Shown: positions 2,055 to 48,690 of the stretch, one piece after another
Position numbering within the stretch: the first letter of the stretch is position 1
Layout: every line of letters begins with the position of its first letter
From: Candidatus Nanoarchaeia archaeon
Lineage (GTDB): Archaea; Nanobdellota; Nanobdellia; Pacearchaeales; GW2011-AR1
Length of the DNA: 64,000 nucleotides
Direction: 5' to 3'
Assembly (NCBI GenBank): GCA_041501125.1
Contig: JBGQNO010000002.1
Coordinates: forward strand, 10,287-74,286
Made by a program: the position numbers and the translations under genes
The notes under the pieces: generated by a model
Told to the model about the DNA's origin: nothing
What the model saw: only the letters and a program-made list of their open reading frames with translations
Databases searched by the model: none

Positions 2055-4383
2055 AGAAAAGAAGCAGGACAAACAGGATGAAAAAGAAATCAAGCTCAAG
2101 GTAGTTGAAGCTCTGCAGGATGATGCTTACAAGGGCATAGCAAGAATTGATGCCGAGACATTAAGAAAACTTGACTTGAAGCGCGGAGATATAATAACAG
2201 TTAAAGGCGCAAAAGAAACAGTCGCCACAGTTGACAGGGCTTATCCAGCTGATATTGGACAATCAATCATAAGAATTGACGGCATCACAAGAAAAAATGC
2301 AAAAATAAGCATCGGTGAAATTGCAAAAATAAAAAAAGCAGACGTGAAAGAAGCCAAAAAAGTAACAATCGCACCAGCCCAGAAGAATATAATGATACAA
2401 GGTGATGGTGAGATGCTCAAGCAAAGCCTGCTTGGCCGGGCATTCGTGAAAGGAGATATCTTGGTCCTCAACGCTTCTTCACGGGGAAAAGATATGATGG
2501 GACGTAAGGACATGTTTGATGATGCCGAAGATATATTTCCAGGTTTCTCAGATATCATGAAAAACTTTGGAGGCATGGGTCTTGGCATGGGCGGCTTGCA
2601 AAGGATTAATTTTATAGTTGTTTCAACAAATCCAAGCCAGCCAGTTGTTATAGAAGAAGGCACAGAACTGATAATTTCACCAAAAGCAATTGAAGTTTCT
2701 GAAGAAAAGATTTCAGATGTAACATATGAAGACATTGGCGGCTTGAGCGAAGAAGTCCGCAAGATACGTGAAATGGTAGAGATTCCATTAAAACATCCTG
2801 AGCTTTTTGAAAGGCTGGGAATAGAGCCTCCGCGAGGTGTTTTGCTTTACGGTCCACCTGGAACAGGAAAAACACTTTTGGCAAAAGCAGTCGCAAATGA
2901 AACTGAAGCTAATTTTATAGAGTTAAATAGTACTAATTTTATGTCTGCTCTACCTGGTACTACTGAAAGAAATATTAAAAAAATCTTTGATGATGCCGAA
3001 AGATTGGCACCAAGTATTGTTTTTATTGATGAATTAGACTCTATCGCATTCAAAAGAGAAGAGAGAGGAATAAATGAATTCCTAAATACTCCTGTAATGG
3101 AATTACTTAAACAAATGGATGGGCTTAAACAAAGGAAAAATGTTATTATCATCGGGGCTACAAATCGCCCTGAAGCAATTGATCCTGCCCTCAGAAGACC
3201 AGGAAGATTCGATCGAGAAATAGAAATTAATGTTCCAAACAGAGAAGGAAGATTGGCTATTTTAAAAATCCACACTAGAAATATGCCTTTGGCAAAAGAT
3301 GTGAATTTAGATGAATTAGCAAGAATAACCCCTGGATTTGTAGGTGCAGATCTCACTGCTCTTGCCAAAGAAGCTGCGATGTCTGTTTTAAGAAGAATAT
3401 TGCCTAGTATAAATCTGAAAGAGGATGAAGAATTACCTAAGAACATACTTGAGAATTTAAAAATTATGAAAATAGATTTTGAAGATGCTATAAAAATAGT
3501 TCAGCCCAGCGCATTAAGAGAGATTTTAGTTGAAACTCCCAATATTAAATGGGACGACATTGGGGGGCTTAAGAATGTTAAACAAGAGTTGAAAGATGCA
3601 GTTGAATGGCCCATGAAATGCCCAGAATGCTTCTCTAGAATGGGCATACGGGCTCCAAAAGGAATCCTACTATATGGTCCGCCTGGAACGGGCAAGACAT
3701 TGCTTGCAAAAGCAGTAGCAAATGAAACTGAAGCTAATTTTATAAATATTAAAGGTCCAGAGCTAATAAATGCCTGGCTTGGCAAAACTGAAGAAGGTAT
3801 TAGAAAAATATTCAAAAGGGCTAGACAAACAGCTCCTTGTATAATTTTCTTTGATGAAATTGACAGTCTTGCTGTACGAAGAAGTATGGACTCCAGAAGT
3901 GAAATTTGGAATACTATTATTAATACTTTACTTACAGAAATGGATGGCTTAGAAGAATTAAAAGGGGTATTAGTTATAGGAGCAACCAACCGTCCAGATA
4001 TGCTCGATCCTGCAATCCTGCGCCCAGGAAGATTTGATAGGCTTGTTCTCATACCTGTGCCTGATGTCGATGGAAGAATATCGATATTTAAGATTCATAC
4101 CAAAAATATGCCTGTTGATGAAACCATCAACATTAATCAATTAGCAAAAGAAACAGAGGGATATACTGGAGCAGACATCGAAAGTCTTTGCAGAGAAGCA
4201 GGTATGCTAGCTTTGCGAGAAGATAAGAATGCAAAATTAATCAAATTAAAACATTTTGAAATGGCAATGCAAAAAATTCCTCCATCTGTAACAAAACAAC
4301 AAGCAAGTATGTACAATAGAATGGAGTTTGAATACTTAAAATCAGCAAAGGCATCATTGGAAAATCCAGTGTATATGGGATAA
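2047..4383 (+). CDS. cdc48: CDC48/VCP-type AAA+ ATPase with two AAA domains
   Basis: Two Walker A motifs GPPGTGKTLLAKAVANE, Walker B motifs VFIDELDS and IFFDEIDS, two ATNRP..D.A..RPGRFDR motifs, and an N-terminal CDC48-N-like domain. Confidence 0.92.
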   Translation: MVEEKKQDKQDEKEIKLKVVEALQDDAYKGIARIDAETLRKLDLKRGDIITVKGAKETVATVDRAYPADIGQSIIRIDGITRKNAKISIGEIAKIKKADVKEAKKVTIAPAQKNIMIQGDGEMLKQSLLGRAFVKGDILVLNASSRGKDMMGRKDMFDDAEDIFPGFSDIMKNFGGMGLGMGGLQRINFIVVSTNPSQPVVIEEGTELIISPKAIEVSEEKISDVTYEDIGGLSEEVRKIREMVEIPLKHPELFERLGIEPPRGVLLYGPPGTGKTLLAKAVANETEANFIELNSTNFMSALPGTTERNIKKIFDDAERLAPSIVFIDELDSIAFKREERGINEFLNTPVMELLKQMDGLKQRKNVIIIGATNRPEAIDPALRRPGRFDREIEINVPNREGRLAILKIHTRNMPLAKDVNLDELARITPGFVGADLTALAKEAAMSVLRRILPSINLKEDEELPKNILENLKIMKIDFEDAIKIVQPSALREILVETPNIKWDDIGGLKNVKQELKDAVEWPMKCPECFSRMGIRAPKGILLYGPPGTGKTLLAKAVANETEANFINIKGPELINAWLGKTEEGIRKIFKRARQTAPCIIFFDEIDSLAVRRSMDSRSEIWNTIINTLLTEMDGLEELKGVLVIGATNRPDMLDPAILRPGRFDRLVLIPVPDVDGRISIFKIHTKNMPVDETININQLAKETEGYTGADIESLCREAGMLALREDKNAKLIKLKHFEMAMQKIPPSVTKQQASMYNRMEFEYLKSAKASLENPVYMG

Positions 4384-26202: not shown

Positions 26203-26208
26203 AAAAAA
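26203..26208 (-). terminator. oligo-T tract directly after tRNA-Glu
   Basis: The minus strand reads ...CAGGGGCA-TTTTTTAT. Confidence 0.4.
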
Positions 26209-26422
26209 TGCCCCTGCCGGGATTCGCACCCGGGTTTCAGCCGTTCTCTAACTGCCTCAAGAAGCTTTTGGCTTTTTAGAGGCACAAACGAAAATTGCCT
26301 GTCCTGAGAGGACAGAGGTTATTGTCTCAACGACTAAACCTCGGCGAGTTTCGAGAGGGCCGCGTCACTAGCCTTTTCCTAATTTTGCAATGAGGAAAAT
26401 TTGGCTGCTAGACTACAGGGGC
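26209..26422 (-). tRNA. tRNA-Glu(CUC) with a 108-nt canonical intron and a second insert in the D-loop
   Basis: Acceptor GCCCCTG/CAGGGGC, anticodon stem CGGCC/GGCTG. A bulge-helix-bulge motif (CGGCC-CTCT-[CGA]-AACTCGCC ... GGCAGTT-AGAG-[AAC]-GGCTG) defines intron 26244-26351 and gives the loop CUCUCGC. T-arm CCGGG-TGCGAAT-CCCGG, A73, no encoded CCA. An extra hairpin TTTTCCT..AGGAAAA lies around 26368-26406. Confidence 0.75.
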
Positions 26423-27382
26423 ATGATTTTGAAAAGTGCAAAGTCTTTTTAAATGTTTAGAGTTAGAAAAGCCAATTTCTTGAATATATTTTTGAATCTC
26501 TGCCTTGCGTGACAAAAATATTTGCCTTCCTCTAATAATTTTAGAAGGATTAAAACCCAACTTCACAAATGAATCTCTTACGTTCTTGAGCAATTTAGGA
26601 ATATAGCTAACAAAAGAAATCCTGAGGTTTTTATTATTCTTTGAGATGTAATGAATTGAACCATCTGTATCTATCAAGCCTCTTATACAAGTTCTGAGAT
26701 AACCCTTATTTGCTTGTATCCATTTTGGAATGCCTTGATTATTCTGTTTTTTATTCCCAGATTCTAAACCCTTCTTTTTCAAAAAATTAACCAGATTTTT
26801 GCCATAAACTGATAGACAGACTGCATTGCGATTTTTAGATTTCATTACGCTTCCTTTTTCTCCAAGCAAATCAAAAAACAAATTTGAAACATAATGTGAA
26901 AGATATTCTTTATCATTCCTGCTATCGCCCGCAATTCTTAAAATGTAACATCTAATCTTCTTTCCTTTCTTGAATTGATTAATATTGCCATCGCCCAATA
27001 TAGTCCCAAATAGCTCTGACAGTCTCTCTGATTCTTCTGGCTCTTTAAATTGCTTGATATTTCTGGAAGAATTAAAGGCACCCTTAACTCTCCCCCAATT
27101 ATCATTTAATTTTTCTGTAACATGTCTACCAAAATCAATGTTAGCAATTCTGCATAATTTGTTATAACTCACTTCTGACAAGAGTACCTTCTCATTTCGC
27201 AATTCATTGCCAGTATAATGAACTGAAAGCCCCAATTGCTCTGCGAGTTTACTCCATGTTTTATCGGACTTAGCTAATTCTACTAATTCCTTTTGTTTTC
27301 CAGGCAGCAATCTTATTCTCACAGAATAGTATAAGATACCGAGGTTAATAAACTTTACTTGGCTACTATACCACAGGGGCAT
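26408..27382 (-). CDS. double-motif LAGLIDADG homing endonuclease with an N-terminal DNA-binding-like extension
   Basis: Motifs LSELFGTILGDGNI and LRTCIRGLIDTDGSI. The ATG overlaps a tRNA-like 5' fragment. The stop TAG is T13-A14-G15 of tRNA-Glu. Confidence 0.85.
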   Translation of the reverse strand: MPLWYSSQVKFINLGILYYSVRIRLLPGKQKELVELAKSDKTWSKLAEQLGLSVHYTGNELRNEKVLLSEVSYNKLCRIANIDFGRHVTEKLNDNWGRVKGAFNSSRNIKQFKEPEESERLSELFGTILGDGNINQFKKGKKIRCYILRIAGDSRNDKEYLSHYVSNLFFDLLGEKGSVMKSKNRNAVCLSVYGKNLVNFLKKKGLESGNKKQNNQGIPKWIQANKGYLRTCIRGLIDTDGSIHYISKNNKNLRISFVSYIPKLLKNVRDSFVKLGFNPSKIIRGRQIFLSRKAEIQKYIQEIGFSNSKHLKRLCTFQNHAPVV

Positions 27383-27413
27383 ATGTTAGTGTAAAATCCC
27401 TTCTTTTAAATAT
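27357..27413 (-). repeat. duplicated tRNA-Glu promoter plus 5' end (upstream copy; the partner is 26399-26456)
   Basis: ATGCCCCTGTGGTATAGTAGCCAAGT vs ATGCCCCTGTAGTCTAGCAGCCAAAT is 22/26 identical. Both copies are preceded by TTTAAAA(A) at about -28 to -22. Confidence 0.7.
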
Positions 27414-27464
27414 TTACCCTTAACTTCTTAGTCCGGAATGAAGTCTGATTAACTTAACAATGTT

Positions 27465-28010: not shown

Positions 28011-28040
28011 TTTTCCTCTTTTTGTTTTTTATAATGAATA

Positions 28041-28113
28041 TAGCCCTGCCAGGATTCGAACCTGGGTCCCAGCCTCCAGAGGGCCGGATCTTTGACCACT
28101 GGACGACAGGGCT
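28041..28113 (-). tRNA. tRNA-Gln(CUG)
   Basis: Acceptor AGCCCTG/CAGGGCT with an A1:U72 pair, anticodon arm CGGCC-CTCTGGA-GGCTG, T-arm CCAGG-TTCGAAT-CCTGG, A73. Length 73 nt, no CCA. Confidence 0.85.
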
Positions 28114-28203
28114 ATAGTTAAAGTATAAAATTGTAACTTAAAAAGTTAACCTTAGACATCCACCTTAGAAAAAATATTTAAACACCCGCTTGCAAGTTAA
28201 TCT

Positions 28204-28706: not shown

Positions 28707-28761
28707 AAAGCCTCAGAAATTTCTAATTTCTGATGGCTATCAAAATTTAGTAAAATTTTGA

Positions 28762-28889
28762 AGCCTCAGGTGAGAATCGAACTCACGACCTCAACATGTC
28801 TGGATTACTCAGGGTAATCCTGAGCACCTTCAAAAATTTTATTTTTGAGGTTACCAATGTTGCGCTCTAACCGGCTGAGCTACTGAGGC
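28762..28889 (-). tRNA. tRNA-Thr(GGU) with a 54-nt intron at 37/38
   Basis: Acceptor GCCTCAG/CTGAGGC, D-arm GCTC-AGCCGGTTA-GAGC, anticodon stem CAACA/TGTTG, loop TTGGTA|A. Intron 28798-28851 folds into two hairpins. T-arm GTGAG-TTCGATT-CTCAC, U73. Confidence 0.85.
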
Positions 28890-29515
28890 GAATAAGAGTT
28901 TATGAAATTAATTTTATCTAAGTTTCTAAGTGGGACTCCTTTTAATATTTTCTGCATATTTCTTTTTGTAGCATAAATTTGATGATAGACATGGTTATTA
29001 TAATGCCAAGGACAAGAAGTAAATGGAATTTTGAGCTTTTTAAAAGTTTCAATACAAAAACTTGCTAAATGCTCGCTCGCAGTAGACAATCCAAAACCAT
29101 TACCCTTTTTACCACCATCAGTGTCCAACAATCCTGCTAACAAGTGAACATAATATTTCTGGGGAAGTTGAGGAATTTTTGCTATTTTTGCTTTTCTTCC
29201 AACAATATATCCTCTGTTTTCTAAAAACTGATAAATTAATTTTGATTCAATCCTGCAATTGTAAAGAGGATTTAATTTATTTTTAACTAATTCCTTTCTA
29301 GGCTTTATTCCAAAGAGCTCAGTAAACAATGGAAGGTAAACCTTATCACAAAAATCTGCAGAATTAGAAATAAAGTAAACATGGTATCTCTTTTGAAATT
29401 TGCCATTTAATCTTCTGGAAGAGGTTATAGGCAACGAGCCATCACCTAATAATAAACCAAAAAGATAAGCCAAATTTTCATTCCATCTTTTAGGAAAGAT
29501 TACTTTATTTAGCAT
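28880..29515 (-). CDS. double-motif LAGLIDADG homing endonuclease
   Basis: Motifs LAYLFGLLLGDGSL and VHLLAGLLDTDGGK. The last codons CCT CAG TAG are positions 2-10 of tRNA-Thr(GGU). Confidence 0.85.
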   Translation of the reverse strand: MLNKVIFPKRWNENLAYLFGLLLGDGSLPITSSRRLNGKFQKRYHVYFISNSADFCDKVYLPLFTELFGIKPRKELVKNKLNPLYNCRIESKLIYQFLENRGYIVGRKAKIAKIPQLPQKYYVHLLAGLLDTDGGKKGNGFGLSTASEHLASFCIETFKKLKIPFTSCPWHYNNHVYHQIYATKRNMQKILKGVPLRNLDKINFINSYSPQ

Positions 29516-29537
29516 ACCACTATTACGCTCTAATTAT

Positions 29538-29563
29538 TTATAAAGATTTGGAAATCTTTATAA
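29538..29563. promoter_or_regulatory. symmetric divergent promoter (paired TATA boxes)
   Basis: TTATAAAGATTT-GG-AAATCTTTATAA has perfect 12-nt inverted arms. Each TTTATAA lies about 27 nt from the ATG it faces (29515 on the minus strand, 29586 on the plus strand), consistent with leaderless transcripts. Confidence 0.5.
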
Positions 29564-48602: not shown

Positions 48603-48690
48603 CGCTCCCGATAGGATTTGAACCTACGACCCCTGACTTCCTTCATATTTATAGAAGGCCAGTGCTCTATCCAGGCTGAGCTACGGGAGC
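48603..48690 (-). tRNA. tRNA-Arg(UCU) with a 13-nt intron at 37/38
   Basis: Acceptor GCTCCCG/CGGGAGC, anticodon stem CTGGC/GTCAG. The BHB core is CTTC-[TAT]...GAAG-[GAA], giving intron 48639-48651. T-arm GTAGG-TTCAAAT-CCTAT, G73. Confidence 0.85.

Follow-up and report, generated by a model that had tools for sequence, protein, structure and literature searches.

LAGLIDADG endonuclease genes that run into tRNA genes in DPANN archaea: candidate mobile cassettes that enter a tRNA gene internally and carry its replacement

Introduction

In Caldiarchaeum, a 5' fragment of the transfer RNA (tRNA) gene for tRNA-Thr(GGU), covering positions 1–27, precedes a complete tRNA-Thr(GGU) at a distance of 1.8 kb, and the complete gene has gained an intron at position 24/25, beside the insertion boundary (Sugahara et al. 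2012, PMC3293823). The insert measures 1868 bp, including a repeated 545-bp region, and has an 813-bp open reading frame (ORF) directly upstream of the tRNA; a machine-learning classifier labelled this ORF a putative recombinase, the event was ascribed to pNOB8-type integration, and such elements were proposed to create tRNA introns and split tRNAs (PMC3293823). Here we describe a similar arrangement in a 64,000-nucleotide (nt) stretch of the genome of Candidatus Nanoarchaeia archaeon, a DPANN archaeon (GCA_041501125.1, contig JBGQNO010000002.1, positions 10,287–74,286 of the forward strand), referred to below as the window. In it, a LAGLIDADG endonuclease gene, LAG211, runs into a tRNA-Thr(GGU) gene and forms with it a cassette of the layout [TATA box – relic of tRNA-Thr positions ~20–37 – endonuclease ORF – functional tRNA-Thr(GGU)]. 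A second such gene, LAG324, ends in tRNA-Glu(CUC). We consider it fairly likely that LAG211 is an I-DmoI-like homing endonuclease in a compact mobile cassette that enters a tRNA gene internally and brings with it a replacement 5' exon or a whole tRNA.

As in Caldiarchaeum, the tRNA concerned is tRNA-Thr(GGU), a 5' fragment is present, and an ORF stands immediately upstream of the complete tRNA in the same orientation. The two cases differ in that no link to LAGLIDADG proteins was made in Caldiarchaeum and the family of its ORF was not established, whereas here the LAGLIDADG gene is the only gene, it overlaps the tRNA, and the phenomenon extends to three protein families, for which the databases contain 84, at least 133 and 313 homologues. 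SegB of phage T4 is a free-standing GIY-YIG endonuclease encoded in a tRNA gene cluster and is reported to be preferentially inherited with the flanking tRNA DNA (PMC2330249). The cassettes resemble it in having an endonuclease gene outside a self-splicing intron, among or next to tRNA genes, with a donor allele that is presumably resistant. However, SegB is a phage GIY-YIG enzyme which is not known to leave tRNA relics or to rebuild a split gene, whereas the cassettes encode LAGLIDADG proteins, reside in cellular DPANN genomes and lie at tRNA intron positions.

All 39 archaeal group I introns of Nawrocki et al. are in ribosomal RNA (rRNA) (PMC6125680). I-DmoI and the archaeal intron-encoded LAGLIDADG enzymes are the closest to LAG211 in protein sequence and fold, and insertion at positions of archaeal splicing introns (37/38, D-loop) is a further likeness. 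The known cases, however, are in rRNA genes, whereas here there is no space for a ribozyme and no Rfam intron match; moreover, the outer 'exon 1' is decayed in the window, and the 5' exon is present a second time inside the cassette, alone or as part of a whole tRNA. Some mitochondrial endonuclease genes insert into a host gene and carry a replacement for the 3' end of a protein-coding gene, the old segment being left as a relic. There, as is proposed here, an essential gene is disrupted, the displaced segment is supplied as a copy and the old one stays behind; the difference is that here it would be the 5' part (promoter and 5' exon) of a tRNA gene that is replaced. We did not find the arrangement described in the literature searched, which linked LAGLIDADG proteins to tRNA genes of archaea, to fragments or disruption of such genes, or to DPANN or Pacearchaeota. 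We regard the cassettes as a variant of free-standing homing endonucleases and tRNA-targeting insertions.

Results

The LAG211 gene and its overlap with tRNA-Thr(GGU)

LAG211 (28880–29515, minus strand) was identified from the ORF list and Pfam as a free-standing gene for a monomeric, double-motif LAGLIDADG endonuclease of 211 amino acids (aa). The protein matches the Pfam family LAGLIDADG_3 (E 5.5e-8), above the curated cut-off, and carries both motifs, LFGLLLGDG (residues 18–26) and LAGLLDTDG (residues 126–134), in one chain. The catalytic aspartates D25 and D133, one ending each motif, are kept in at least 90% of 28 aligned homologues. When the family profile was compared with the Protein Data Bank (PDB), it matched I-DmoI, and D25 aligned with the GDG of that enzyme. 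The AlphaFold2 model (pLDDT 92, pTM 0.90) has two alpha-beta-beta-alpha-beta-beta-alpha domains and a DNA-binding saddle. Its top Foldseek matches were an intein endonuclease domain and I-DmoI at TM scores of ~0.7, the I-DmoI chains giving 0.62–0.72 over ~190 residues. On the strength of sequence and model, LAG211 is probably an active homing endonuclease of the I-DmoI kind, for which cleavage is predicted.

The ratio of nonsynonymous to synonymous substitution rates (dN/dS) was 0.14 for LAG211, measured against its 90%-identical orthologue in L108 (loci from other genomes are given L numbers), and also 0.14 for LAG324, measured against L109. By this measure both enzymes are maintained and probably active, not remnants.

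The 3' end of LAG211 reads ...TCG CCT CAG TAG, where TAG is tRNA positions 8–10 (the conserved U8-A9-G10). The overlap with tRNA-Thr(GGU) is 10 nt (28880–28889), both genes being on the minus strand. The tRNA (28762–28889, minus strand; 57 bits with Rfam, and found by ARAGORN when introns are allowed) is the functional copy at the 3' end of the cassette. It consists, according to ARAGORN, of exon 1 (28852–28889), a 54-nt intron at the canonical position (28798–28851) and exon 2 (28762–28797), and folds into a cloverleaf once the intron is removed. The precursor fold shows a 3-nt bulge (GAC) at the 3' splice site, a short helix and a 2–3-nt bulge at the 5' site, which is a relaxed bulge-helix-bulge (BHB) motif and not the strict form. 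The intron is absent from L108 and is homologous to introns of endonuclease-free tRNA-Thr genes. ORF, Pfam, Rfam and ARAGORN thus agree on what had been read from the sequence at the outset, a 211-aa double-motif LAGLIDADG ORF that overlaps an intron-containing tRNA-Thr(GGU) by 10 nt.

An AT-rich box, AAAATTAATTT (28905–28915, minus strand), is located at −16 to −26 from the 5' end of the tRNA. It falls within GATAAAATTAATTTC (28904–28918, minus strand; −15 to −29), which forms codons D-K-I-N-F in the 3' end of the ORF and is a candidate tRNA promoter. Stretches of the GATAAAATTAATTTC type occur at equal spacing to the tRNA in L004, L006, L017, L018 and L037, and K201 is invariant in the family alignment. 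It is plausible that the AT-rich stretch inside the 3' end of LAG211 serves as the promoter of the tRNA.

The ORF-into-tRNA geometry in three LAGLIDADG families

When all ORFs of the 64 kb were subjected to profile searches, LAG211 and LAG324 were the only LAGLIDADG ORFs detected, and both end inside a co-oriented tRNA. A database search with LAG211 returned 84 homologues (47–90% identity; mostly 206–229 aa, range 129–288), the named ones belonging to Pacearchaeota, Nanoarchaeota and unclassified archaeal records. At least 67 of the 84 have a C-terminus that is the translated 5' end of a tRNA, in varying frames (..SPQ-stop, ..ASVA-stop, ..ASVAQSVE...GSIPTRGS). For 24 family members the DNA locus was fetched: 19 came from one-genome-per-species archaeal assemblies, spread over Pacearchaeota, Woesearchaeota, Nanoarchaeia and Aenigmatarchaeota, and the others were L037, L081, L108, L119 and the window. 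L037 and L081 derive from samples of the Hainich aquifer. A tRNA-Thr(GGU) was found within a few nt of the ORF end in all 24, L013 being a rearranged variant with a complete tRNA upstream and a tRNA 3' half downstream. The copy in L018 is frameshifted. L006 (CAYIKF010000047.1), labelled 'uncultured Gammaproteobacteria' yet carrying the DPANN cassette, is 99.97% identical to L081, and this contig is probably mis-binned. A search of IMG/VR for viral carriage of LAG211 gave only distant LAGLIDADG relatives (25–33% identity).

The LAG324 family has at least 133 database homologues, and among the matches listed, 53 of 120 have the tail APVV, ASIV or MPL directly before the stop. At the DNA level its loci adjoin tRNA-Glu(CUC) or tRNA-Gln(CUG). 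A third family, of ~330 aa and with 313 homologues, adjoins tRNA-Thr(GGU) in L041 and L045 and shows the same kind of C-terminal tails. A subgroup of this family (P0220, P0232, P0237, P0275, P0295, P0298, P0318) has tails (..GIEP.., ..DSNPRP..) that correspond to the translated antisense strand of a tRNA; these ORFs therefore run into a convergent tRNA gene.

Because the only two LAGLIDADG ORFs of the window both end in co-oriented tRNAs, and because the adjacency is kept in every homologous locus examined, the geometry exceeds chance. The original prediction had assigned both proteins to LAGLIDADG families, which the Pfam matches and the conserved catalytic aspartates confirm, and had taken the geometry to be recurrent. 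It is so throughout the LAG211 and LAG324 families and also in the third; the adjacency is not peculiar to this genome, and the ORFs are not decaying.

Relics of tRNA genes around the cassettes

Directly upstream of LAG211 we found a tRNA relic, relic A (TTAGAGCGTAATAGTGGTA; 29515–29533, minus strand), that corresponds to positions ~20–37 of tRNA-Thr(GGU), i.e., the 3' strand of the D-stem, G26, the 5' strand of the anticodon stem and the loop up to A37. Of its 19 positions, 16 agree with the adjacent tRNA-Thr; its end coincides precisely with the canonical intron site 37/38, and its last A is the A of the LAG211 ATG. The relic A locus of the window is without tRNA positions 1–19; in L002 an extra relic, of positions 1–16, is present farther upstream of the motif. 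Across the family, the motif GAGCGYTATAGTGGTA stands behind a TATA box in 19 of the 24 loci (three mismatches at most to the consensus, and likewise to tRNA-Thr positions 22–37). In the window this TATA-like box is TTTATAAATAA (29534–29544, minus strand), which most family loci likewise have ahead of relic A. The box belongs to a palindromic double TATA that LAG211 shares with the divergent p158 gene, and its position would make it the LAG211 promoter. The palindromic TATA-like pair, TTATAAAGATTT / AAATCTTTATAA, is at 29538–29563, between the two divergent genes; the endonuclease-free relative L028 has one copy.

Remains of the resident tRNA on both sides were clearest in L037. There, positions 1–31 of the resident tRNA-Thr come first, followed by 38 nt that include a TATA box and then by the relic motif and the ORF; a complete tRNA-Thr comes next and is separated by 10 nt from resident positions 38–73. 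The two resident halves can base-pair (GCCTCTG/CAGAGGC, TGTCC/GGACA); both agree with the intact tRNA at the empty locus L030 and differ from the carried tRNA. In L018 a resident 3' half (positions 38–73) follows 4 nt after the complete tRNA. L041, of the third family, shows a weaker pattern: a resident 5' piece, GCCACAATAGCTCAGTT (positions 1–17), is located upstream, then comes a complete tRNA whose acceptor stem is different, and downstream of this tRNA 13 nt of the complementary 3' end, CTCAGTTGTGGCA, are left. Among L037, L018, L041, L120 and L124, the halves are both near-complete and mutually complementary only in L037.

Partial direct tRNA repeats at the borders, such as relic A and the resident remains, are typical of integrase-mediated integration, and the geometry is like that of the published Caldiarchaeum case (PMC3293823). 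The loci might thus be remnants of a plasmid or virus that recombined site-specifically into a tRNA and left attL/attR repeats, with the LAGLIDADG gene as a passenger. However, the insert between the resident halves is only ~0.8 kb and its sole ORF is the LAGLIDADG gene, no integrase is found nearby in the window, and three LAGLIDADG families share the same layout at three different internal tRNA sites. We regard such an origin as very improbable.

Explanations by splicing were also considered. A group I intron around LAG211 was rejected: there was no Rfam match, and no space is left between relic, ORF and tRNA. A currently spliced giant intron containing LAG211 was rejected as well; the window relic is without positions 1–19, so that there is no functional outer gene, and a complete tRNA follows the ORF. 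As for L037, no BHB motif was seen at the junctions by inspection, and they were rejected as splice sites.

LAG324 and tRNA-Glu(CUC)

LAG324 (26408–27322, minus strand) was recognized by its Pfam match and by the lengths of its homologues. The longest ORF is 324 aa (26408–27382), its upstream part running through a tRNA relic, and the true product is ~304 aa, starting from the GTG at 27322; most homologues are 295–305 aa, and many begin MRI.L. The 324-aa ORF ends 15 nt inside tRNA-Glu(CUC), which is the second overlap named in the original prediction. This tRNA (26208–26422, minus strand) has two introns and folds as tRNA-Glu(CUC) after splicing by hand; tools in default mode overlook or mistype it, and ARAGORN alone types it as Cys. 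By our own reading of the borders, it is made up of exon 1 (26401–26422), a D-loop intron (26368–26400), exon 2 (26352–26367), an anticodon-loop intron (26243–26351) and exon 3 (26208–26242). The D-loop intron folds with a 4-bp AGCC/GGCU helix between 3-nt bulges.

Upstream of the ORF, a relic of tRNA-Glu exon 1 (positions 1–22), GCCCCTGTGGTATAGTAGCCAAG (27358–27380, minus strand), matches the functional tRNA at 20 of 23 positions and ends at the D-loop intron site. The original tRNA-Glu TATA box is at 27402–27414, at the correct distance from this relic. Equivalent relics were found in L007, L046, L095, L109, L120, L122 and L124, the one in L122 being full; in L120 and L124, relic tRNA 3' parts are also present downstream.

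The LAG324 cassettes of the window and L109 are 92–97% identical (synonymous divergence, dS, 0.25), whereas four flanking genes are 74–78% identical (dS at least 1.0). If the upstream 62 nt and tRNA exon 1 are included with the cassette, identities are 92–100%; no like pair exists for LAG211 in this lineage. The similar tract takes in tRNA exon 1 (22/22) and the D-loop intron (29/33) and stops at the 3' end of the intron; the anticodon stem past that point belongs to another allele, with compensating changes.

Relics of both kinds end at internal tRNA positions, 37/38 for Thr (LAG211) and the D-loop for Glu (LAG324), and resident tRNA remains flank [ORF + complete tRNA] in several loci; for these two reasons we place the insertion point inside the tRNA. 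The original prediction saw the promoter and 5' boundary of tRNA genes as the place that the enzymes target or at which they persist. Such free-standing genes would insert, by intronless homing, at the promoter and 5' boundary of an intact resident tRNA gene, disrupting their site by the insertion, and the downstream tRNA would be the original resident. It is true that ORF and tRNA always point the same way, with the ORF reaching over tRNA position 1, and that the DNA by which the window exceeds the empty locus L028 sits between the 5' end of the tRNA and a promoter block common to both. But internal tRNA relics upstream of the ORFs, and resident remains around [ORF + complete tRNA] in L037, L018, L041, L120 and L124, are not what this scheme predicts. 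Nor is a high-identity tract that enters the tRNA and ends at the D-loop intron, as for LAG324. The tRNA-Thr of L028, moreover, differs from that of the window in the acceptor, anticodon and T stems, despite 83% identity in p158. The endonuclease genes probably do not target the tRNA 5' flank, and the 5'-boundary scheme is unlikely, though not negligibly so. On the reading that we prefer, internal entry, their place in the 5' flank would result from what the element has at its own 3' end, a replacement 5' exon or a whole tRNA.

Some further features of this locus were noted. The D loop of tRNA-Glu(CUC), AGCAGCCAA, is without the usual GG, and the T loop is TGCGAAT (G at position 55); L109 has both features. 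The anticodon-loop intron (~105–130 nt) is homologous across distant genomes (window 26243–26351; L007, L095, L124), with the pattern ..GCCGAGG..GTTGAGA..CCTC.., which suggests that a functional RNA may be embedded in it. L109, unlike the window, has a 57-nt palindromic insert (3211–3267) that separates the old tRNA-Glu promoter from the relic exon and resembles a miniature inverted-repeat element.

Empty sites, neighbours and mobility

Synteny was followed in 80 metagenomic loci anchored on the neighbouring gene p158. Its usual neighbour is tRNA-Thr(GGU); LAG211 is present in 2 of the 80, the third family in 2, and the remainder are empty, i.e., the site is polymorphic for presence and absence. 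L028, the nearest by p158, has no endonuclease, and its tRNA is 18 nt from the shared promoter block. The segment at 26.2–29.5 kb had been taken for an accessory islet. The tRNA-Gln (28040–28114) and the two small ORFs on which this was based are present, the ORFs being weakly paralogous (E 1e-4). However, in many related genomes without the endonucleases, p103, p64, p158, p181 and the tRNAs stand together in conserved synteny, and the segment is better described as a conserved neighbourhood with two independent insertions.

The LAG211 cassettes of L018 and L081 share 83% identity over the stretch that begins 48 nt before the ATG and closes with the 3' end of the tRNA; the flanks of the two cannot be aligned. 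Among the fetched loci there was no exact empty allele for L018 or L041.

These data bear on a third explanation, that nothing has moved: an ancient tandem tRNA duplication, one copy of which decayed, with an unrelated ORF lodged in between and vertical inheritance ever since. Plain vertical descent between the window and L108 (see below) would agree with it, as would L013, with its complete tRNA upstream and half tRNA downstream. Against it stand the different alleles of resident and carried tRNA within one locus (L037, L018, L041), the empty state of the majority of syntenic sites, and the dS of 0.25 for LAG324 compared with at least 1.0 in its flanks. We give this explanation very little credence.

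The protein could, alternatively, be domesticated. It would then be immobile and have a role in the host, such as DNA-binding regulation of its own gene or of the tRNA gene beside it, and the tRNA promoter inside its gene would hold it in place. Strong purifying selection (dN/dS 0.14), a length conserved across 84 homologues of 47–90% identity, vertical inheritance between the window and L108, and the operator-like conservation of relic A between TATA box and ATG are all in keeping with this. The distribution is sporadic, however (~5% of the tRNA-Thr sites in synteny are occupied, as are 19 species genomes among those scanned), fresh insertions have destroyed resident tRNAs, cassettes and flanks are discordant in divergence, and one copy (L018) is frameshifted. 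Domestication is in our view distinctly unlikely.

A few observations concern the surroundings. Among relatives (L028–L107), endonuclease-free ones included, tRNA-Thr(GGU) is found between p64 and p158 in either orientation, and a single tRNA-Thr gene appears to flip in place there. At 28708–28769, a 53-bp segment with two hairpins lies between 9-bp direct repeats, AAGCCTCAG (28708–28716 and 28761–28769), of which the second is the tRNA-Thr 3' end; the segment is absent from L108. The copy at 28708–28716 may be a relic of the resident tRNA 3' end or may come from a later duplication, as the absence of the 53 bp from L108 could reflect either a deletion there or a duplication in the window. Neither this segment nor the 54-nt tRNA-Thr intron has another copy in the window. 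Following p181, L109 has a gene of 242 aa, located between p181 and the LAG324 cassette, and L108 has one called at 248 aa at the contig end; in the window only the last 8 codons (LHSGLRS-stop) of this ~242-aa gene are left, at 27420–27443, which indicates a deletion in the window lineage.

Alleles of the carried tRNA

The tRNA carried by a cassette is presumed to resist the enzyme of that cassette. An intron as the source of immunity was rejected as a general rule, since the 90% relative L108 has an intronless cassette tRNA. Canonical introns were found in 27 of 50 empty-site tRNA-Thr genes, compared with 6 of 24 cassettes. Introns at 26/27 occurred only in cassette tRNAs (7/24, versus 0/50 in empty sites), but they are clustered in one divergent clade and were not relied on. 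The common empty-site tRNA-Thr(GGU) allele contains GAGCGCAACATTGGTAATGTTGAGGTCCTGAG, and the cassette allele of the window and L108 has G49 and a GTGAG T stem. G49 was present in 14 of 24 cassette tRNAs and 8 of 50 empty-site tRNAs (Fisher p 4e-4, the loci being phylogenetically non-independent), and in both L037 and L018 the destroyed allele has C49 and the carried allele G49. This is a hint that G49 may bear on recognition.

Discussion

We propose that the enzyme would cut an endonuclease-free tRNA-Thr(GGU) within the gene, at or near the anticodon loop (37/38), and that the break would be repaired by copying the cassette in. Insertion at such an internal point would separate the 3' part of the tRNA from its promoter and 5' exon and leave it orphaned, because archaeal tRNA genes depend on an upstream promoter. 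The 3' end of the element itself would then supply a promoter, within the end of the ORF, and a replacement 5' exon or a whole tRNA. The old 5' part would remain upstream as a relic, and the old 3' part would sometimes remain downstream. Co-orientation, overlap at tRNA position 1 and the borrowed UAG stop (8–10) would all follow, because the cassette carries promoter and tRNA at its 3' end. LAG324 would act alike at the D-loop of tRNA-Glu/Gln, the short D-loop intron being the 3' end of the inserted DNA, and the putative insertion site of the third family is likewise the D-loop.

Two outcomes may be distinguished. One would be [relic exon 1] – ORF – new exon 1 – short intron – host remainder, as for tRNA-Glu of the window and L109. 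The other would be [relic exon 1] – ORF – complete tRNA – [relic 3' part], as in L037, L018, L041, L120 and L124.

Several observations weigh against this proposal. To cover all loci, both of its variants are required, the replacement 5' exon and the whole tRNA. Relic A is conserved much better than the surrounding protein-coding DNA, which a decaying relic should not be; this implies that it has an additional function. From its place between TATA box and start codon, it is a possible binding site for the enzyme. The cassette dS between the window and L108 is 0.41, within the range of the flanks (0.30–0.54), and by this measure the LAG211 cassette is vertically inherited in that lineage. The L108 cassette tRNA is not only intronless but identical to common empty-site alleles across positions 22–48, and self-immunity would therefore require recognition that reaches the T stem. 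Finally, the fetched loci included no exact empty allele from the same population for L037, the locus with the most complete resident halves.

More tentatively, the cassettes may be natural 'cleave-and-rescue' selfish elements, in which an endonuclease would destroy an essential single-copy tRNA gene and travel with a resistant replacement. By repeated insertion, decay and partial loss they could be a major source of tRNA introns (canonical and non-canonical), orphan halves and split tRNA genes in Archaea, and the 'recombinase' element of Caldiarchaeum could be of the same kind. We put this wider proposal forward as a possibility about which we are more doubtful than confident.

The loci also carry a warning for annotation, as standard tools mis-call ORFs that run into tRNAs, tRNAs with several introns, and tRNA relics. 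Introns are present in 4 of the 10 tRNAs of the window. With introns allowed, the gene that ARAGORN reports in default mode as 'tRNA-Glu(ttc)' is recognized as tRNA-Arg(tct), interrupted by a 13-nt intron, and a tRNA-Val(gac) has a 14-nt intron (48603–48690 and 61429–61515 for the two genes).

It is an old question how introns arise at unusual places in archaeal tRNA genes, why closely related genomes differ in them, and how some of these genes come to be encoded as separate halves. Mobile elements have been suspected in tRNA intron gain and splitting, and to our knowledge no agent has been named. The predicted targets, of the 20-bp class and within tRNA genes, may be of use as those of new meganucleases. 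If the proposed mechanism holds, the cassettes would be a case from nature in which an endonuclease is coupled to a rescue copy of the essential gene that it targets, and the three LAGLIDADG families in DPANN archaea offer a concrete candidate for the agent.

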